DNA from: a virus | Lineage: Duplodnaviria > Caudoviricetes | IMG/VR virus record: IMGVR_UViG_3300037466_003648 | Span: 1 to 64,000 of that record | DNA: 64,000 nt | Direction: 5' to 3' (one strand) | Shown here: piece after piece, positions 2,733-45,748 of the stretch | Position numbering within the stretch: position 1 is the first letter of the stretch | How the letters are laid out: each line of letters begins with the position of its first letter | Program-made: the position numbers and the translations under genes | Notes under the pieces: model-generated | Databases searched by the model: none | What the model was told of the DNA's origin: nothing | What the model saw: only the letters and a program-made list of their open reading frames with translations

Positions 2733-3530
2733 ATGTTCAAGAACGCTGACAACCTGTCCAAGCTCGCCGCGCCGCCGATCGCGCCCGTGGTCGAGCCCTT
2801 CAAGCCCACGGTTGTGCCCGCTGGGTTCGCGGGTGTCCACACGTTGGCGATCCAGATCGCCATCACCCAGTGGCGCGGCAAGCTCACGGGTGCCTTCCCC
2901 AACACGATGAACGGCAAGGCGCACCGCCTCGACGTCTCGCGGATGGTGGCCTTCGATGACTGCACCGAAGACGCCTTCGCCTGGCTCAAGACGCGCCTGG
3001 GGCCGAAGCACGAAGACCGCACGCTGCGGCCGGACGATCGCCACTCGCTGGTGATGTACCGCGGCGGTCCGCACGGGCTCAAGGATCTCAAGCCCTGGTT
3101 CCTGATGTACAAGGAGGTCAGCGAAGCGATCGCCTGGTGCCAGGAGCAAGTGGTCATCAGCCGCGGGCAGGATCACTTCGCGCTGGTGATGCTGGTCAGC
3201 ACCAGTGATTGGGACCTCAAGAAGCCGGGCAACCCCAACTTCGACCCCTTCTACGAGGCGGTGCTTCGTGGAATCTCCGACTTGGAGGTGGTGAAGTTGT
3301 CCCCGGAACCCAGCATCGAGCTGCCGGATGGCTTCCCCGAGAAGGAGCTGGTGCAACCGGTAGAGACGCCCAAGCCGCGCATCATCGTGAGCGCGGCGGA
3401 GCAGGTGCGCCGCAAGATCGACACCAGCCACGAACAGCCGGTCGCACCCGGCGCCAAGCCCGAGTACGTCGACAGCAAGGAACGTCCTGGCGTGGTCGAC
3501 GAGCTGATCGCCGACTTCGTCGAGCGCTAG
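2733..3530 (+). CDS. hypothetical protein immediately upstream of the RNAP genes
   Basis: SD GAGAGGAG; 265-aa ORF, 15 nt before the beta-like gene. Confidence 0.8.
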   Translation: MFKNADNLSKLAAPPIAPVVEPFKPTVVPAGFAGVHTLAIQIAITQWRGKLTGAFPNTMNGKAHRLDVSRMVAFDDCTEDAFAWLKTRLGPKHEDRTLRPDDRHSLVMYRGGPHGLKDLKPWFLMYKEVSEAIAWCQEQVVISRGQDHFALVMLVSTSDWDLKKPGNPNFDPFYEAVLRGISDLEVVKLSPEPSIELPDGFPEKELVQPVETPKPRIIVSAAEQVRRKIDTSHEQPVAPGAKPEYVDSKERPGVVDELIADFVER

Positions 3531-3545
3531 AGGAGAACACAACCG

Positions 3546-5510
3546 ATGTCCAACGAATCCAACATCAAGCACGTCCTGGTGATCGGCCAGCCGACCCAGA
3601 TGGTGGAGGACTTGTTCCCTCACCTGGACCCCAACGAGCCCAAGGCGCCCGACGAGGTGTTCAAGCGCTTCGGTGGCTTCACCTACGTGGATGCGCCCAG
3701 CGAGTTGGTCGACCCTAACAACTGGACGATGATGGGTGGGCAAGGCGACGTGGACGTGCTCACGGACACGCTGCTCTGCTTCGTCAAGAAGGGTGGCGTG
3801 ATCTACCTGGGCAGCGCCCTGGAGCGCACCAGCGATGACCACAAGGCGCTCGTCCAGCTCGACGAGGTCTGCCCCAACGCCATCCTCGACGAGGCCATCG
3901 AGCTGCTCAAGTTGCAGCTGGGCAAGGCGATCGCCGACCCGCTCGACTTCGAGACCGCGGTCATCGAGGCGATGGACGTCCACAACGTCGCGGGTGAGAA
4001 GGTGATCTTCGCCGGTGCCGAAGAGGACAACGTGGCCGCCTTCCACGCGCCGCTGCGTGCCAGCAAGACGCACACGCTCAAGTGGTGCCCGGACGGCACG
4101 ATCGAGCTGGACGGGGCGATTCTCCGGCGCACGGCGCTGATGGGGATCGGCCACCTCAAGACCGAGGTGCTGGGCGGTCGCGTGCTGGAGCCCGGCGAGG
4201 TCGTTGGCTTCATCGCCAACCGGATGGCGCTCAACGGCGTCGACGACCTGGTGGGCTACGGTCGCGCCTTCGGTCCCGGCAAGGAGGACCACACCAACGC
4301 CACCCTCACGGACGAGGGGCGGCAGTTCCGTGCGCACGGGATCGTGGGCGTGGTGAGCGTGCACGGCAACTTCGTGTCGAAGGCCAAGCCCGCGATGGTG
4401 GAGCTGGTGGCGCAAGCGCTGCACCAGCTGGACCCCAAGCAGCCCTTGTTCCTGCACCAGCAGGTCAAGGAGATCTACGAGGGTGAGGAGGCGATGAAAG
4501 CCTTCCGCGCCCAGATGGAGAAGGACGGCCGCGTCACGCTTTTCGGCAAGAGCACCAAGCACACGCGCGTGGACGCGGGCGCTTACTGCCTCTACACCGA
4601 GGATGGGACGGGCACGCTCACCCGCAAGGCGGTGATCGGTAACTTCGAGGTGGGCAACGATGGGTCTATCTACGCTCCCAAGAGCCTGATGGACGGCATC
4701 GCGGGCTACCTCAAGGAGTCGGTGGTTGCCAAGCGTGACTTCGGCACGATGAGCGAGGACTTGCTGTCCCGCTACTACAACGCCGAGGTCGTGGTCAAGG
4801 AGGGCGATCGCCTGCTGCCGGGCGACGTGGTCTTCACCATCGACGGCATTCCGCACACCTGGGAGTCCAAGGCGGACTACGGGATCGTGACGGGTGTGAC
4901 CGACACGATCAGCACCAAGCTGGTGCACTGCGAGGTGCGCATCGACGCCTGGTTCGAGGGCGACTGCAAGATGCGTGGCTTCGGCAAGGGCTTGATCGCC
5001 CCGATGGAAGCCTGCGGCATCACCTGCAACGTCAAGGACGCCATCATCATCGGTGCCGCGGGCATCATCAAGGACAGCGCGGCTGCGAAGTCCAAGATGA
5101 GCAACGAGCGCCGCGAGCGTGTGGTGGTCACCATCGAGTACTGCGAGCGTGACTTCGAGCTGGCGATCGCCAAGCACAACCCCGAGTGGGACGAAGACAC
5201 GCACCAGACGGGTTGTATGACCAAGGTCTACCCGGATCTGTGCGTGATGAGCTTCGACTGCGGCAACCGCACGGTCACCATCATCGACGAGAACGCGCTG
5301 GTGGCCGATGTGACCTTCATGATCGAAGCGTCACCGGTGGGACAGGCGGTCGGGTCGTCTTCGATGACCTTGCCGCAGATGGGCTTCCTGTCCAGCTTGC
5401 CCACCGGCAACGCCTGGCTCAACCAGGAGGCACTGCCCGGCGTCGTGCGCCGCGTGGATGCGCTCACCTACCTGCACGCCGTCAGCAACGGCATCCCTGT
5501 CGAGTTGTAA
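3546..5510 (+). CDS. divergent RNA polymerase beta-like subunit (double-psi beta-barrel carrying the two catalytic-centre lysines)
   Basis: GNDGSIYAPKSL aligns by eye to RpoB YNFEDSILVSER; VKEGDRLLPGDVV to the VxGGDILV region; GDCKMRGFGKGLIAPME (nt ~4959-5006) to GDKMAGRHGNKGVISKI; DAIIIGAAGI to DIVLNPLGV. Confidence 0.8.
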   Translation: MSNESNIKHVLVIGQPTQMVEDLFPHLDPNEPKAPDEVFKRFGGFTYVDAPSELVDPNNWTMMGGQGDVDVLTDTLLCFVKKGGVIYLGSALERTSDDHKALVQLDEVCPNAILDEAIELLKLQLGKAIADPLDFETAVIEAMDVHNVAGEKVIFAGAEEDNVAAFHAPLRASKTHTLKWCPDGTIELDGAILRRTALMGIGHLKTEVLGGRVLEPGEVVGFIANRMALNGVDDLVGYGRAFGPGKEDHTNATLTDEGRQFRAHGIVGVVSVHGNFVSKAKPAMVELVAQALHQLDPKQPLFLHQQVKEIYEGEEAMKAFRAQMEKDGRVTLFGKSTKHTRVDAGAYCLYTEDGTGTLTRKAVIGNFEVGNDGSIYAPKSLMDGIAGYLKESVVAKRDFGTMSEDLLSRYYNAEVVVKEGDRLLPGDVVFTIDGIPHTWESKADYGIVTGVTDTISTKLVHCEVRIDAWFEGDCKMRGFGKGLIAPMEACGITCNVKDAIIIGAAGIIKDSAAAKSKMSNERRERVVVTIEYCERDFELAIAKHNPEWDEDTHQTGCMTKVYPDLCVMSFDCGNRTVTIIDENALVADVTFMIEASPVGQAVGSSSMTLPQMGFLSSLPTGNAWLNQEALPGVVRRVDALTYLHAVSNGIPVEL

Positions 5511-8196: not shown

Positions 8197-8792
8197 GGCA
8201 CGCGGGCTGGGCCGTGGTGGGATTGGCCTTCTTCGGACTCACGTTCGCCGTGGGTCACCAACCCGTTGCCCAGCCCACCCACTGGGTCCAGGGCAACGAC
8301 CTGCTCGACGAGCACAGCACCCACGGCGAGGGCAACCTCCAAGCCGTGCGCGGTACCGTGGACCGGGTGGGCACCAAGGTGACGGGCAGCCGCACCATCC
8401 ACCTGATTGCCGATGATGGTGCGCCCATCCTGATCAGCGTACCACCCACCGTAAGCGTGCGGATGCCCAAGAGCGGCGATCGCATCGGTGTGGTGGGCAG
8501 CGTCATCACGCCCGGCACGCTCACCCTCAACGGTCGCGATCAGCTGCAGTTCCTGCCGCCCGCCACCAACAGCTCGCGCCGCCGCGAGTACTTCGCCCAG
8601 CTGGAGAACATCGAACGTCTCCCGTCGGGTGCGCACCGCGCCACGGTGGTAGGCGTGCACGGCGAGTTCGTGACGACCGCCCTGATCCAGGCTGGCATCG
8701 CGATTCCCCACAAGAAGTGGGCCGACTCCGGCTACATGATGAAGGGCTACGTCGGCAGCGACGGCACCTACGTGGTGGAGTCGCTGGAATGA
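8193..8792 (+). CDS. membrane-anchored protein with N-terminal hydrophobic segment and possible OB-fold-like domains
   Basis: GWAVVGLAFFGLTFAV at the N-terminus; ATGA overlap with the next gene. Confidence 0.65.
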   Translation: MRHAGWAVVGLAFFGLTFAVGHQPVAQPTHWVQGNDLLDEHSTHGEGNLQAVRGTVDRVGTKVTGSRTIHLIADDGAPILISVPPTVSVRMPKSGDRIGVVGSVITPGTLTLNGRDQLQFLPPATNSSRRREYFAQLENIERLPSGAHRATVVGVHGEFVTTALIQAGIAIPHKKWADSGYMMKGYVGSDGTYVVESLE

Positions 8793-10027
8793 TCGCCCTC
8801 GTCCTGGCCGCGGCCTTCGGTACGCTCGCAGGACTGCTGTCCGCGCTGCCGGGGCTGCACATCTCCATCCTGCTCATCGGGGCGTTGCCCCTGCTGGGTG
8901 TCAACGGGCCAGTGGGTGCCGTGGTGTTGGTCACGGCCATCGGATCGGGTCTGATCGCGAGCAACCTCGCCAAGACCTTTCACCCGGCCACGGCCGACAC
9001 CATCCGCTCGGCCACACCCGAGCAAATTCTTGCATATCGGGGGGACGGTCTCAAAGCGGTGGGCATCCAGCATCAGGCGGTGTGGGCAGGCGTCCTCACC
9101 GTTCTGATGCTGGCCGCTGTTTTGCTGCCGTTGCGCACCCTGATCGGGACCGGCTTCGCTGCCGTGATCACCATGGTCACCGGCTGGTTGGTCCTGCCCC
9201 TGCTGCTCCTGTTCACGGGGCTGGTCGTGCGCCAGGCGAAGCACAAACTTCCCACGGTGGCGGTCATCATCCTGGCAACAGGGCTGGGGTTCTACACCCT
9301 CAACTGTGCTGCCCTCACGGGCAACCACAACGCGCTCGCCCCTCTTTTGGGTGGCGGCTTCGCGCTTCCCGCGCTTGCGATGGTCGTGCTCCATCGCGGA
9401 AGGGTCCAACCCTTCCCCAAACAGCGTGTGGTCAACAGCGCTGCGAAGCCTGCCCCCGAACAAGTGTGGGGCGCGCTCGGTGGGATCGCGACGGCGCTGA
9501 CCGCGGGCTTGGGCTCCGGCGGCGCCGTCTCGGTCTTCGCCGACCAGGTCAACCACGAAGAGTACCTGGGCATGCACACCGCATCGGAAGCCGCGAACCA
9601 TGTGTTCGCCGTGCTCCTCTTCATCCTGGTTGGGACGACCCACTCGGGTACCGGCGTTGCCTTGCGGCAACAACTGGTGAGTCCCGGCCTCGCCATGAGC
9701 TTGCTGCTCCTCGTCGCGCTGGCGTTGAGCACGTTCGTGGCGCACTACGTTGCACAACAAGTAGTAGGGAGGTACGTATCATGCATTGGTAGGATTCCCC
9801 AACGGTCGGCCGCGATGGTCATCACCGTTGTGACCTTGGCACTGCTCTTCACCGAGACCGGCCTGGCAGGGATCGCTGTTGCGATCGCCGCTGCCGCGTT
9901 GGGCTGGTGTGCCAAGACAAACTTCGTTCCGAACCAGGCGATGACTTTCACCCTCACGGGTCCGGTCCTCGTCTACCATCTGGGTCTCTCCGGGTGGCTG
10001 GCATCGGTTCTCCACGTCCTCCATTGA
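8789..10027 (+). CDS. TctA-family (tripartite tricarboxylate transporter large subunit, COG1784-like) polytopic membrane protein
   Basis: About 10-12 hydrophobic helices; PGLH near the N-terminus; TIRSATPEQILAYRGDGLKAV, LAPLLGGGFAL and EEY...AANHVFAVLLFILVGTTHSG resemble TctA conserved blocks. Confidence 0.72.
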   Translation: MIALVLAAAFGTLAGLLSALPGLHISILLIGALPLLGVNGPVGAVVLVTAIGSGLIASNLAKTFHPATADTIRSATPEQILAYRGDGLKAVGIQHQAVWAGVLTVLMLAAVLLPLRTLIGTGFAAVITMVTGWLVLPLLLLFTGLVVRQAKHKLPTVAVIILATGLGFYTLNCAALTGNHNALAPLLGGGFALPALAMVVLHRGRVQPFPKQRVVNSAAKPAPEQVWGALGGIATALTAGLGSGGAVSVFADQVNHEEYLGMHTASEAANHVFAVLLFILVGTTHSGTGVALRQQLVSPGLAMSLLLLVALALSTFVAHYVAQQVVGRYVSCIGRIPQRSAAMVITVVTLALLFTETGLAGIAVAIAAAALGWCAKTNFVPNQAMTFTLTGPVLVYHLGLSGWLASVLHVLH

Positions 10028-10146: not shown

Positions 10147-10180
10147 GGTTGGGTGGTTGGGTAGGTTGGGCCGTGGTTGG
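10147..10180 (+). repeat. four GGTTGG units (G-quadruplex-like or promoter-like tract)
   Basis: GGTTGGGTGGTTGGGTAGGTTGGGCCGTGGTTGG in an intergenic region. Confidence 0.6.
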
Positions 10181-10245
10181 CCTCTTGTAGGGCGATCCCA
10201 TCGGAGGGGTCGGCCACGCGGCGAGATGCCGTTACGGGAGACACC

Positions 10246-10635
10246 ATGACCAACCAGCAACCCTTCATCCCGGCGGTGTTGGTAAACACTGCCAAGCTGC
10301 GCGAGTTAGCTCTTGAGCGAGCTGGCACAGTTGCCGATCAGCCGGTGACCCTGCTCGAACGAGTGGTGGTTGCGATCTTGGTGAACCGAGAAGTCAAGAG
10401 CCCGACGCATCCCTTGATGGATACCATGCGCGAGGACTTGCAGACCTGGAACATCCCCAAGTACACGGCCCTGGTGGGTTGGTTGGCTCCCTACTCGCTG
10501 GTCTCCCAGTACCCGTCTGCGGTCAGCCGCGTTGCCCAGTACCTGCTGGGCACGACACGGGATCTGGAGCACGCCAGCATCGACTGGGAAGCCGTCCGGT
10601 ACCACTACCCTCAACTCAAGCCGCCCATCTGGTAG
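10246..10635 (+). CDS. hypothetical protein
   Basis: SD GGGAG, ATG 10246. Confidence 0.65.
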   Translation: MTNQQPFIPAVLVNTAKLRELALERAGTVADQPVTLLERVVVAILVNREVKSPTHPLMDTMREDLQTWNIPKYTALVGWLAPYSLVSQYPSAVSRVAQYLLGTTRDLEHASIDWEAVRYHYPQLKPPIW

Positions 10636-10691
10636 GTGGGCGCACTTGTCACGTCGGTTACATCCCTCCGATGCTCGAAAGGAGCTACCCC

Positions 10692-11252
10692 ATGACCACG
10701 CGTTCCACCCGCACCGCCAACACCGGCACCGAGATCGTCAAGGAGTCGGCCGAGAACATCGAGGCTGCCCCTGCCACCGACGGCCAGGTTGCCGCCACCG
10801 AGAAGGACGCCGAGAAGAAGGCGCCCGGCCCCAACGCCTACGTGGGCAACATCATGCACCTCAAGCGCGAGACCAAGTCCACCGGCAAGGCGTACGCCTT
10901 GGTGATGGTGCGCTTCGTCAACGGCCAGGAGATCGCGCAGAAGGCCGTGCAGGTCTTCCCGCGCACCGAAGGCTTCACCAGCCAGGTCGGCGACATGTTC
11001 GGCTTCGAGGCCAAGCGCCTCGTGGAAGCCTACGACAACGACGACAAGCCGATGAAGCTGGAGGACGGCACGCCCGTCTACCGCGCGTCCGGCGTGGGTC
11101 CCGAGCTGAAGCACTTCACGGTGCGGGCGACCGGCAAGGCCGCCAGCGTGGAGCCGACCGGCGAGATCAAGTCCAACGGCTTGCGCGAGCGCCTGGCGAA
11201 GGCGTCCCCGCTCATGGCCAAGTTCTTGGGTGTCAAGTTCGAGAACTCGTAA
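10692..11252 (+). CDS. hypothetical protein, possibly SSB/OB-fold-like
   Basis: SD GAAAGGAG; very strong codon bias; fold is a guess. Confidence 0.75.
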   Translation: MTTRSTRTANTGTEIVKESAENIEAAPATDGQVAATEKDAEKKAPGPNAYVGNIMHLKRETKSTGKAYALVMVRFVNGQEIAQKAVQVFPRTEGFTSQVGDMFGFEAKRLVEAYDNDDKPMKLEDGTPVYRASGVGPELKHFTVRATGKAASVEPTGEIKSNGLRERLAKASPLMAKFLGVKFENS

Positions 11253-11262
11253 GCTCCACCTT

Positions 11263-11292
11263 GAGTAGGGTCGTGGTAACATGACCCTACTC
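11263..11292 (+). terminator. 13-bp hairpin with GUAA tetraloop before the tRNA array
   Basis: GAGTAGGGTCGTG-GTAA-CATGACCCTACTC. Confidence 0.55.
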
Positions 11293-11302
11293 TCCTCTTC
11301 AA

Positions 11303-11374
11303 GCCTGGCGAGTCAGTGAGGAACGACATGCGGTTGAAACCCGCAGGGACCACGTTCGAGTCGTGGGCCAGGCA
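11303..11374 (+). tRNA. trnF: tRNA-Phe(GAA), CCA not encoded
   Basis: Acceptor GCCTGGC/GCCAGGC, D-stem GTC/GAC, anticodon arm TGCGG-TTGAAAC-CCGCA, T-arm CCACG-TTCGAGT-CGTGG; G instead of U at position 8. Confidence 0.8.
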
Positions 11375-11380
11375 CTAGAT

Positions 11381-11433
11381 CACTCTGTACCAACTAATCT
11401 CCTTCGGGAGGGCAGGTGGGCTCCTACAGAGTG
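11381..11433 (+). ncRNA. 53-nt long hairpin with cUUCGg apex between tRNAs
   Basis: CACTCTGTA/TACAGAGTG basal stem; TCTCC-TTCG-GGAGG apex. Confidence 0.45.
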
Positions 11434-11445
11434 GTCGACCTTCAT

Positions 11446-11521
11446 GGGTAGGTGGTCCAGTAAGCAGGACGCGAGTGTGAAAAGCTCGGGGCACCGTGTG
11501 CAATTCCGGTCCTACCCACCA
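11446..11521 (+). tRNA. atypical tRNA, anticodon GAA (Phe), with encoded CCA
   Basis: Acceptor GGGTAGG/CCTACCC-A-CCA, D-stem GTCC/GGAC, CGAGT-GTGAAAA-GCTCG; G32 and a non-canonical T-arm (ACCGTGTGCAATTCCGGT). Confidence 0.6.
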
Positions 11522-11524
11522 TTT

Positions 11525-11598
11525 CCTCGGGACGCCGAAGGTCGGCAGGCGCTACCAGAACATGCGCCCTCTAGGTGGTTCGATTCCATCCCCGAGGA
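11525..11598 (+). ncRNA. tRNA-like RNA with an expanded 11-nt anticodon loop
   Basis: Acceptor CCTCGGG/CCCGAGG-A, D-arm GCCG-AAGGT-CGGC, stem GGCGC/GCGCC around TACCAGAACAT, T-arm GGTGG-TTCGATT-CCATC. Confidence 0.65.
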
Positions 11599-11612
11599 CT
11601 TACACAACTCAC

Positions 11613-11783
11613 GGGCGTGTCAGCACCCTATCCGGCGGGTGCACCCGTGTCGTGACCCTAGCAGGATGACACCCTGCGAAGGTCTAAGCTACACTGTCCC
11701 AGGCGGTGTGAAAGCCGTGTTCTGGGGTGTTAACAGCGTAGTGATGGCACGGGAGGTGGCGGGTTCAAATCCCGTCGCGCCCA
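11613..11783 (+). ncRNA. tRNA-like RNA whose anticodon loop is replaced by a ~90-nt two-hairpin domain
   Basis: Acceptor GGGCGTG/CGCGCCC-A, 6-bp D-stem GCACCC/GGGTGC, 10-bp stem CCCGTGTCGT/ATGGCACGGG, variable AGGTG, T-arm GCGGG-TTCAAAT-CCCGT. Confidence 0.7.
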
Positions 11784-11792
11784 CCCCTTTCT

Positions 11793-11941
11793 CTGGAAGT
11801 AGCTCAGCGGTAGAGCACGCGCATTTCGCCCATAGCTCAGTGGTAGAGCGCACCCCAGTTAAGGGTGAGGTCCCCGGTTCGAATCCGGGTGGGCGAGCCA
11901 ACGGCGCGCGGGGCGGTGGTTCAAGTCCATCCTTCCAGACC
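11793..11941 (+). ncRNA. split (outer) tRNA body enclosing tRNA-Asn in its anticodon loop
   Basis: 5' half CTGGAAG-TA-GCTC-AGCGGTA-GAGC-A-CGCGC (11793-11822); 3' half GCGCG-GGGC-GGTGG-TTCAAGT-CCATC-CTTCCAG-A (11906-11939); all stems pair across the insert. Confidence 0.7.
11826..11900 (+). tRNA. trnN: tRNA-Asn(GTT) with encoded CCA; A instead of U at position 33
   Basis: Acceptor TCGCCCA/TGGGCGA-G-CCA, D-arm GCTC-AGTGGTA-GAGC, CACCC-CAGTTAA-GGGTG, T-arm CCCGG-TTCGAAT-CCGGG. Confidence 0.9.
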
Positions 11942-12051
11942 TTTTGAACCTTGGGGGTTGAGAGCCCCGAGCGTGCGGCTGCAGCGTCACGAAGCGGCAA
12001 GTCCGCTGGTCACCGAGATCTCTAGGTGGACCAGCACCAGGACGGCAACGG

Positions 12052-12093
12052 GGTGGGGAGTGCCCAGACGTGGGTCCCCACCGCTTTGTTTTT
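12052..12093 (+). terminator. intrinsic terminator ending the tRNA transcript
   Basis: GGTGGGGA...CCCA-GACG-TGGG-TCCCCACC followed by GCTTTGTTTTT. Confidence 0.55.
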
Positions 12094-44626: not shown

Positions 44627-45748
44627 ATGAGCACCGTCCGCACCACCATCGAGCGTCTGGTCAACGTCCGGCCGCACACCAACTCTGACAACCTGAACCT
44701 CGCCATCGTGCGTGGCTGGCAAATGGTCATGAACGACCGCAACGCGGAGAACCCGCGTAAGACCGGCGACCTGGTCGTTTACTTCGAGGCGGGCACCGTG
44801 CTTCCGTTGAAGTGGGCCGAGAAGTTCGAGGTCGTCAACTACCTCTCCAACAAGACGGACATCGAGGGCAACAAGGTCTTGGTGGTCGGCAAGGTCCGCT
44901 TGCGGGGCGAGCCCAGCTTCGGTCTCACGGTTCCCGTCGCCGAGGCGCTGGCCCTGATGGACGAGCCGGACACCGCGGTTCTGTTCGAGGGCGACGACGT
45001 GTCGCACCTCTTCGGCACCAGCAAGTACCGGCCGCCGGTCAAGGCGAGCGCGGGTGACGCCGAGGAGGATCACCCGCACTTCCAGCCCTACACCGACATC
45101 GAGAACCTGCGCAACTTCCCCAACATCATCGAGGAAGGCGAAGAGGTCACCTACCGCGAGAAGCTGCACGGCACGAACTGTCGCGTGGGCTTCGTGCGCT
45201 GTGACGAAGATCCCAACTGCATCGTCCGCATGGCGGGCTCGCGCGAACTGCGGCGCAAGGCGCCCAAGACCGACGACGAGATGGCCGCCAACACCTACTG
45301 GTTCCCGTGGACGCTGGAGTCGGTCAGCTTGATGCTCAGCCACCTGGGTATTCAAGGTAACCAGAGCGCGACGCTGTACGGTGAGGTCTACGGTGGTGGC
45401 GTCCAGAAGGGCTTCGACTACGGCCACAAGCGTCCGCAGTTCCGCGCCTTTGACCTGTCGGTCAACGGCAAGTACCTGGACGATCCCGAGTTCGAGGCGC
45501 TGTGCCAGGAGTTCGGTATCGAGGTGGCGCCGCTCGCGTACCGCGGTCCCCACAACATGGCCAAGCTCAAGGAGCTGGCTGAAGGCAAGACGGCCATCGA
45601 GGGTGCCACGCATATCAGCGAGGGCATCGTCGTAACCCCCACCAAGGAGCGTGTCCACCCGCAGGTGGGTCGCGTGATCCTCAAGTACGTGTCGGATGCC
45701 TACCTCTTCCGCAAGGGCGGGGATGACGACGACACGACCGACGTGTAA
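44627..45748 (+). CDS. ATP-dependent RNA ligase, DRB0094/Rnl2-type
   Basis: N-terminal HTNSDNLNLAIVRGWQ and GDLVVYFE; ligase motifs EKLHGTN (I), YGEVYG (III), FRAFDL (IIIa), EGIVV (IV), ILKYVS (V). Confidence 0.88.
   Translation: MSTVRTTIERLVNVRPHTNSDNLNLAIVRGWQMVMNDRNAENPRKTGDLVVYFEAGTVLPLKWAEKFEVVNYLSNKTDIEGNKVLVVGKVRLRGEPSFGLTVPVAEALALMDEPDTAVLFEGDDVSHLFGTSKYRPPVKASAGDAEEDHPHFQPYTDIENLRNFPNIIEEGEEVTYREKLHGTNCRVGFVRCDEDPNCIVRMAGSRELRRKAPKTDDEMAANTYWFPWTLESVSLMLSHLGIQGNQSATLYGEVYGGGVQKGFDYGHKRPQFRAFDLSVNGKYLDDPEFEALCQEFGIEVAPLAYRGPHNMAKLKELAEGKTAIEGATHISEGIVVTPTKERVHPQVGRVILKYVSDAYLFRKGGDDDDTTDV

Follow-up and report, generated by a model that had tools for sequence, protein, structure and literature searches.

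What is made from a tRNA gene that carries a second, complete tRNA gene in its anticodon loop? The question is raised by positions 11793-11941 of the window analysed here, a stretch of 64,000 nucleotides (nt) taken from the very start of a 205,180-bp virus record, which has direct terminal repeats. The best marker of the phage is a 684-amino-acid (aa) phrog_1735 protein with 50-55% identity to Caulobacter phiCbK-like jumbo phages, and on this similarity the phage is classed as a soil phiCbK-like jumbo phage. The 149-nt nested unit consists of a tRNA-Asn enclosed by the 5' and 3' halves of an outer tRNA-shaped body. Both folds are under selection, both anticodon loops have drifted and the same layout recurs in other phages. 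The reading that we favour, tentatively and somewhat short of calling it probable, is that the inner tRNA-Asn, which has A at position 33, is released and that the outer body is a non-decoding, tRNA-shaped carrier or decoy, either left split or resealed.

The nested unit and its folds

The initial annotation, made from the letters alone, had described a complete, CCA-ended tRNA-Asn nested in a second tRNA body whose halves pair fully, with only ATT and ACGGC as linkers. Base-by-base reading of 11793-11941 gives the same anatomy, set out here with the evidence for the main parts (L308 is the orthologous locus described in the next section).

11793-11825, + strand: 5' half of the outer tRNA-shaped gene (sequence read, fold, ARAGORN after deletion of the inner tRNA, changes at 4:69 and 10:25 in L308)
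11793-11799, + strand: outer 5' acceptor strand CTGGAAG, followed by TA (U8-A9)
11802-11816, + strand: outer D-arm GCTC-AGCGGTA-GAGC, followed by A26
11818-11822, + strand: outer 5' anticodon-stem strand CGCGC
11823-11825, + strand: outer 5' linker ATT (AUU in the RNA), 3 nt
11826-11900, + strand: inner complete tRNA-Asn(GTT) with U1:A72, G73, encoded CCA and loop CAGUUAA (A33) (ARAGORN, Rfam RF00005, L308)
11901-11941, + strand: 3' half of the outer tRNA-shaped gene (sequence read, folds, same ACC-TTTT end in L308)
11901-11905, + strand: outer 3' linker ACGGC
11906-11910, + strand: outer 3' anticodon-stem strand GCGCG
11911-11914, + strand: outer variable loop GGGC, 4 nt
11915-11931, + strand: outer T-arm GGTGG-TTCAAGT-CCATC
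11932-11938, + strand: outer 3' acceptor strand CTTCCAG, followed by A73 (11939) and CC (11940-11941)
11942-11945, + strand: TTTT run directly after the outer ACC end, kept in L308; a strain-variable region starts at 11944

The outer cloverleaf was found to have 21/21 standard pairs, one of them G-U, in arms of 7, 4, 5 and 5 base pairs (bp). The elbow bases U8, A14, G18G19, G15:C48, G53:C61, T54-T55-C56 and A58 are all present, and this pairing together with the tertiary bases is far above chance level. The inner tRNA scored 63.6 bits with Rfam RF00005, for which the gathering score is 29, and was called tRNA-Asn(GTT) by ARAGORN; the intact outer gene was missed by both programs. With RNAfold, the 149 nt at minimum energy (-61.3 kcal/mol, z = -2.1) take precisely the form of two nested cloverleaves.

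The 83-nt insert, that is the linkers plus the inner tRNA, is fully accounted for as tRNA. It is placed exactly in the outer anticodon loop, spans the inner tRNA from +1 to the CCA and itself folds as a tRNA ending in NCCA. When 11826-11900 was deleted, ARAGORN called a 74-nt tRNA, marked 'tacg', with an 8-nt loop, AUUACGGC, the loop length that the initial annotation had predicted. A canonical 7-nt outer loop with a readable anticodon is not restored by removal of the insert, the loop being 8 nt here and 6 nt (UUUGAC) in L308. The closest isotypes of the outer body, judged by nearest neighbours, are weak and mixed (Pro, Ile, Met and Asn). A Pro isotype was considered on account of the Pro-like C1:G72 and A73 and was rejected, there being no GG anticodon in the ortholog.

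The nested unit is real DNA and not an assembly artefact because independent contigs carry it unchanged. A 151-nt unitig from other soil or rhizosphere sequencing runs covers 11795-11945 with 0 differences, and strain-variant contigs of 61 kb and 5 kb carry the unit with no internal difference reported.

The inner anticodon loop, CAGUUAA, has A at position 33 in place of U. U33 is near-universal in tRNAs. Of 891 sampled phage tRNAs, 834 have U at position 33, 44 have C, 7 have A and 6 have G, and two of the seven tRNAs with A33 are inner members of nested pairs. Relative to the ordinary tRNA-Asn of this phage at 84550 (loop CUGUUAA) the inner tRNA shows the change U33 to A33, while it retains G34-U35-U36-G73, the identity set for asparaginyl-tRNA synthetase. 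For nucleases of the colicin E5 type, position 33 ahead of G34-U35 has to be a pyrimidine; an Asn tRNA with A33 would then resist them, which we mention as a lead only. The inner tRNA has all the marks of a good substrate for bacterial RNase P: its acceptor is 7 bp long, position -1 is U and G73-CCA is encoded. We do not claim that U at -1 or an encoded CCA is enriched in the nested inner tRNAs, because the background rates are already high (65% and 37%). As a separate observation, C33 was present in ~5% of the sampled phage tRNAs (44/891; loci L075-L298), often several times in one cluster, for example in L113, which is far above expectation for a 'universal' U33.

An ortholog and further nested pairs

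Metagenomes were scanned for a CCA-ended tRNA with an outer-type T-arm at short range, and one true ortholog was found. This locus, L308, lies on a 34-kb contig of 60% GC that is syntenic with the window, the flanking proteins being 46-64% identical: upstream are homologs of 8717-10027 and 10177-10635 (46-55% aa identity) and downstream is the phrog_1735 protein (~60% aa identity). The nested units have 81% nt identity. When the two are aligned, standard pairs occupy 98.8% of the 84 pair cells and all 8 helices are kept. Seven pairs have changed on both sides and are still paired, namely outer 4:69 and 10:25 (each G:C to A:U) and five inner pairs; outer 6:67 has undergone a one-sided change from A:U to G-U, and one inner pair is broken. 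Decay of the outer stems without compensation, which the initial annotation had named as refuting its reading, was not seen: all of the outer pairs that changed in L308 (3/3) still pair, two of them by changes on both sides. When the partners were slid by 1-3 columns as a control, 30-48% were paired and 0-1 both-side-changed pairs were obtained.

Both anticodon regions are the least conserved parts of the nested unit. The outer loop remnant is AUU plus ACGGC here and UU plus UGAC in L308, and no single cut-site rule makes a 7-nt outer loop in both. The inner loop of L308 is CUAAUAC, with the anticodon AAU, which is not a normal bacterial anticodon. The inner U1:A72 and G73-CCA and the outer A73-CC-TTTT are identical in both. 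Constraint in a decoding tRNA normally falls most heavily on the anticodon loop, which here is the freest part. Given that the relative keeps the folds by matching changes while both loops drift, it appears that a double tRNA-shaped RNA is selected and not a broken gene or an ordinary decoder. Comparison of the two sequences places the outer fold under apparent selection, and the nesting predates the split between the two phages, which lie at ~50% protein identity.

Directly 3' of the nested pair in L308, at 3290-3720 and 3734-3938 of the reversed locus, there is an AT-rich stretch with an HNH-like open reading frame (ORF; motif ..CPNCH..), followed by tRNA-Thr and tRNA-Lys. This may be a mobile insertion.

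The layout was also sought in viral and metagenome contigs by scanning for two T-loops 24-42 nt apart, deleting each called tRNA and rerunning ARAGORN, a form of detection that overlooks shells with unusual arms. At least eight further independent and complete tRNA-in-tRNA pairs were found, in unrelated contigs of about 31-61% GC.

L092/L303: inner Ile-GAT, A33, linkers UU and AACAUUCA
L129: inner Phe-GAA
L174: inner Arg-CCT on a 14-bp stem
L221: inner with 6-nt loop and G73-CCA
L298/L300: inner Ile-GAT
L299/L306/L310: inner with anticodon AAU
L302: inner with anticodon arm capped by a GCAA tetraloop
L304: inner with 6-nt loop

Among the matches listed, the outer loop is canonical after excision only in L129, where it reads CUUCUAA in an Arg-UCU body with A20. 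There the excised part is the inner tRNA-Phe plus a 4-nt tail, the nearest neighbours of the outer body are tRNA-Arg(TCT) and the cluster has no other Arg tRNA. Outer remnants of 4-10 nt are found in L092/L303, L221, L298, L299, L302 and L304, and L174 has a long stem. L092 and L303 are identical in outer body and linkers save for one D-loop base, and the inner anticodon arm has drifted between them. Several of the inner tRNAs have non-decoding loops, marked by A33, a length of 6 nt, a GCAA tetraloop or the anticodon AAU. Two kinds of pair may coexist: one in which a tRNA truly is an intron, as L129 would be, and one, like the pair studied here, in which neither loop looks built for decoding.

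L298 is the cultured Cellulophaga phage phi4:1 (KC821632, ~143.1-143.4 kb; L298:7640-7810), and phage phi17:2 (KC821609) is identical there. The pair consists of a tRNA-Ile(GAT) with CCA in an unannotated shell, with linkers (A)CC and UAAA(A), and GenBank annotates the inner tRNA-Ile only. These cultured phages make the question bench-testable.

Some other features of the scanned contigs are recorded here. The inner member of L302 (reverse strand, ~8390-8560 of the reversed locus, on a 201-kb groundwater contig of 61% GC) cannot decode with its GCAA tetraloop and still ends in A-CCA. Three phage tRNAs, Leu-TAA (L085:6371-6536), Tyr-GTA (L177:2928-3098) and Thr-TGT (L177:3871-4025), have ~85-nt inserts right after the anticodon. 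These inserts share a hairpin with an AGUAAA loop, an A-rich AAAAUC linker and a long hairpin with a T-loop cap (GGTTCGAATCC), and they look like a conserved intron-like family shaped as the top half of a tRNA.

The array, its relatives and the ligase

The nested pair sits in an odd 0.8-kb array of tRNA-shaped RNAs, 11303-12093, in which no coding signal was seen in the GC content of third codon positions (GC3). The other features of the array are as follows.

11303-11375, + strand: tRNA-Phe(GAA) (ARAGORN, Rfam)
11446-11518, + strand: second GAA tRNA, loop GUGAAAA (G32) (ARAGORN, Rfam)
11527-11598, + strand: tRNA body with perfect stems and an 11-nt loop, UACCAGAACAU (ARAGORN/Rfam, fold)
11613-11791, + strand: tRNA body with a ~90-nt folded domain replacing the anticodon loop (fold; 7-bp acceptor with one G-U, T-arm TTCAAAT, A73-CC)
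12050-12093, + strand: terminator-like hairpin and T-run ending the array (sequence, fold; unflagged by a simple terminator scan)

The RNA at 11613-11791 resembles a natural 'tRNA scaffold' with its cargo. The loop core CAGAACA of 11527-11598 equals the loop CUGAACA of the tRNA-Phe beside the nested pair of the ortholog, with U33 changed to A, and the T-stem GGTGG/CCATC is common to 11527-11598 and the outer shell. Because the 11-nt loop contains CCA, it was considered as a copy, at the DNA level, of a nested tRNA after splicing; this idea was set aside, as CCA would arise by chance in ~14% of cases and the bodies are unlike except in the T-arm. A strong 13-bp hairpin with a GUAA loop, at 11263-11292, separates the upstream gene from the array's first tRNA, and a similar hairpin precedes the orthologous tRNA-Phe in a relative, L387. 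In a strain variant, seen in two runs, 11944-12083 (140 nt) is swapped for ~114 unlike nt with a different GC-rich hairpin while the T-run at 12085-12093 is kept; the variant also has single-nucleotide polymorphisms in neighbouring members of the array (11539 A>T and 11676 G>A).

A sigma-70 promoter scan gave no convincing promoter upstream of the array, so the array may be co-transcribed with the upstream genes. Known structured RNAs were also considered: the match to YrlA, with 19.9 bits and E = 0.61, stayed below the gathering score of 69 and spanned a neighbouring T-arm and the outer D-arm, and ARAGORN found no transfer-messenger RNA. A separate, ordinary cluster of 32 tRNAs at 83958-87783 includes the canonical tRNA-Asn (CUGUUAA), Val-UAC and Arg-ACG. 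Since this complete cluster has ordinary Asn, Val and Arg tRNAs, the nested pair is not needed for decoding.

Searches for further relatives of the array gave little. A blastn search of the array against GenBank phages returned generic tRNA matches only, the five best records among phrog_1735 relatives (identity <=55%) contained no array homolog, and the upstream protein 10479-11252 had no homolog in 5.8 billion proteins. Protein 8717-10027 was also used to find relatives, at 41-71% identity. Three of these (L389, L390 and L392) do not have the array, and the short contigs L388, L391 and L393-L395 gave no tRNA or array match, though they may end before the array; in L387, the 71% relative, the Phe ortholog is kept and the contig then ends. 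The ortholog pattern GCCA..GCGCGGNGC..GGTTC had 74 matches listed in viral contigs, none of them a tRNA, and a scan of the genome collection gave two matches, neither of them nested. The pattern of two D-arms 12-24 nt apart found only L002, which was rejected as unrelated. At L002:1520-1640 a 5' tRNA half, made up of acceptor, D-arm and an anticodon stem with the loop CTTAAAA, leads directly into a complete tRNA-Lys(TTT) and then into AT-rich foreign DNA, which makes it a truncated tRNA and not a nested one.

An RNA ligase gene had been pointed out at 44627 in the initial annotation, and the searches agree with this.

44627-45748, + strand: phage RNA ligase of Rnl5/DraRnl type (phrog_968 E = 3e-50; PF09414 2.4e-21; PF21189 4.7e-12, the N-terminal OB domain)

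The OB domain is also matched as PHA02142, and the protein is a possible sealing enzyme for this locus. The end chemistry on which the initial annotation relied is established knowledge: RNase P leaves a 3'-OH on the leader, RNase E and RNase Z leave a downstream 5'-P, and ligases of the Rnl family join 3'-OH to 5'-P. DraRnl-type ligases prefer nicks in duplexes, and T4 Rnl1 is specialised for breaks in anticodon loops. Only one of five records with nested pairs also has a phage ligase; of the two complete records, one has it and one does not. An obligatory phage ligase is unsupported by this five-record survey because the complete 145.9-kb phi4:1 genome contains no RNA ligase of either PF09414 or PF09511.

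Readings of the locus and known systems

In the favoured reading, of which we infer each processing step and cellular role, the 149-nt unit would be one conserved segment of a transcript with two complete tRNA folds, one within the other. Host RNase P would cut 5' of the outer body and, at 11825/11826, 5' of the inner tRNA to leave ...AUU-3'OH, and an endonuclease of the RNase Z/E kind (RNase Z in some bacteria) would cut after the inner CCA to leave 5'-P-ACGGC.... One product would then be a 75-nt, CCA-ended tRNA-Asn-like RNA with A33. The other would be the outer halves of 33 nt and ~39 nt, annealed by 7 + 5 bp and by the D/T-loop elbow into an anticodon-less body with an ACC(A) end. The nick in this shell may be sealed, a step that we lean slightly against. 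Given that selection keeps the shapes and the 3' ends and not the anticodon loops, the outer RNA would work through its tRNA body and would not be a decoder. As a carrier it could provide tRNA-type, nuclease-proof ends for its cargo; as a decoy it could occupy enzymes or defence nucleases whose grip is on the body or the tail of a tRNA. Either role would fit the neighbouring chassis RNAs of the array, which bear an 11-nt loop or, at 11613-11791, 90 nt of non-tRNA cargo. Either would also fit the literature on tRNA-targeting defences and phage tRNA counter-measures, which provides an arms-race background (PMC10264068, PMC12851939, PMC12445682). The initial annotation had offered two fates for the outer RNA, a re-ligated tRNA or an anticodon-less decoy. 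A normal decoder is disfavoured by loops of 8 and 6 nt with unrelated sequence, and the decoy fits the data better.

Several points tell against the favoured reading. The covariation is based on one ortholog and so on two sequences, and anticodon switching between related tRNA genes is known, so that the loop differences alone are no proof of non-decoding. The A33 could simply mark a nuclease-resistant yet working Asn tRNA, which would be uninformative on the outer shell. Because the loop of L129 is canonical, there may be a real route of splicing, and it could operate at this locus too.

That splicing route, with the inner tRNA as intron of the outer one, is unlikely for this locus. Once the inner tRNA had been cut out by RNase P and a 3' endonuclease, a ligase, either the Rnl5-type enzyme of the phage or another one, would join 11825 to ~11901, and the sealed outer tRNA would decode, for example as Val-UAC or Arg-ACG/UCG with a loop one base off, so that each nested gene would give two RNAs. 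The exact placing of the insert, from inner +1 to CCA, in the anticodon loop suits such a route, as do the 3'-OH and 5'-P ends, which are known to be ligatable, the ligase gene within the window, the intact outer tertiary bases and the perfect Arg-UCU loop of L129, with its A20 and no other Arg tRNA in its cluster. It is weakened by the change from an 8-nt loop here to a 6-nt loop in the ortholog, with unrelated sequence and an indel and no common cut rule that gives 7 nt. The outer body lacks the A20 of Arg tRNAs and has no close paralog or clear isotype, Val-UAC and Arg-ACG are already in the main cluster, the ligase of the window is of a type known to seal duplex nicks and not loop breaks, and a complete Cellulophaga phage genome has a nested pair with neither PF09414 nor PF09511.

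A selfish element, that is a mobile tRNA-shaped insert whose shape serves only for its removal from the RNA, with the outer gene as a disabled or tolerated target, seems quite unlikely: the layout does recur in unrelated phages of 31-63% GC, an HNH-like ORF lies just 3' of the L308 pair and the array is absent from several relatives, but the nesting is older than the split from L308, the outer stems are kept by compensatory change, unlike those of a dead target, and the genome showed neither an empty site nor a target duplication, nor any further copy of the insert. It is improbable that the uncut 149-nt RNA is itself active as a tRNA mimic with two elbows and two tails, the short linkers hindering the inner RNase P site. 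Both folds and both 3' ends are kept together, the 5' linkers are only 2-3 nt and the neighbouring chassis RNAs hold non-tRNA cargo that RNase P could not remove; against this, the inner tRNA has all the traits of a good RNase P substrate described above, and tandem or dimeric tRNA precursors are normally cleaved. Only the non-canonical 8-nt loop speaks for a chance resemblance, an assembly chimera or a decaying pseudogene, an explanation that is very hard to credit beside 21/21 pairs with their tertiary bases, identity in independent contigs and compensatory changes in the ortholog.

The layout is kept by compensatory change at ~50% protein identity and recurs in unrelated phages, which would mean that phages make tRNA-shaped RNAs whose worth is not decoding. 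If splicing were true it would be a third tRNA-splicing route, without ribozyme or splicing endonuclease, operating in phage-infected bacteria through housekeeping enzymes. Alternatively these RNAs would form a class of natural tRNA scaffolds or decoys and would bear on phage defence that targets tRNAs and on the counter-defence. In either case annotation pipelines miss the outer gene completely.

The initial annotation knew of no described bacterial or phage example, and here it has to be corrected. Lak megaphages have 'enigmatic' introns, anticodon-loop inserts with no protein gene, and one of them, in tRNA-Thr(TGT), 'itself may encode a tRNA', a remark left unexplained (Devoto et al. 2019, Nat Microbiol, PMC6784885). 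The likeness is that a short insert without a protein gene interrupts the anticodon loop of a phage tRNA. The Lak introns are from gut Prevotella megaphages and the outer gene was read as a normal tRNA-Thr after removal, whereas in the soil phiCbK-like phage no canonical outer loop results, the inner tRNA is full-size and of Asn type, with CCA and A33, and an ortholog shows selection on both folds. Altered anticodon loops in free-standing phage tRNAs have been put forward as a way to evade the anticodon nucleases of the host (van den Berg et al. 2023, PMC10264068); the inner A33 and the remodelled loops of the array fit this theme, although 'position 33', 'U33' and 'decoy' do not occur in that text. 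In the literature searched, no mechanistic paper was found on nested tRNA processing, tRNA-in-tRNA or a phage tRNA intron with RNase P.

To our knowledge the tRNA genes of bacteria and phages are intron-poor and their only known introns are self-splicing. Group I introns in bacterial, plastid and phage tRNAs, for example tRNA-Leu(UAA), are likewise inserted in the anticodon loop and removed at the RNA level. They typically exceed 200 nt, with P3-P9 and a G-binding site, whereas the 83-nt insert has no P1-P9 ribozyme core, an Rfam scan gave no intron family at E <= 1, and removal here would rely on protein enzymes or RNase P. The archaeal tRNA-Trp intron with a C/D box small RNA also nests a functional small RNA at a tRNA anticodon loop, and in archaea both products are used. 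The borders here differ from those of archaeal bulge-helix-bulge introns, being single strands of 3 nt and 5 nt between the outer anticodon stem and the inner acceptor with no 3-4-3 motif, and the nested RNA is a tRNA. We know of no splicing endonuclease in bacteria and their phages, and no search for such a gene was made here. In split and permuted tRNAs (the halves of Nanoarchaeum equitans, the permuted genes of Cyanidioschyzon) bodies are likewise built from 5' and 3' halves broken in the anticodon loop. An archaeal or eukaryal endonuclease and ligase join those into canonical decoders, whereas here the halves lie on either side of another tRNA in a single transcript, and joining them would give a non-canonical loop.

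The 'tRNA scaffold' of Ponchon and Dardel (2007) is reportedly an engineered RNA in which the anticodon loop is replaced by cargo and the tRNA body gives tRNA-type processing and nuclease resistance. The unit described here is natural and conserved, and its neighbour at 11613-11791 resembles a natural version of that scaffold; the nested scaffold would be expected to split, because its cargo is itself an RNase P substrate. To the known tRNA-shaped inserts of phage tRNA genes this case adds the full-size inner tRNA, the selection on both folds seen with an ortholog, the drift of both loops and the presence of the same layout in a cultured phage.

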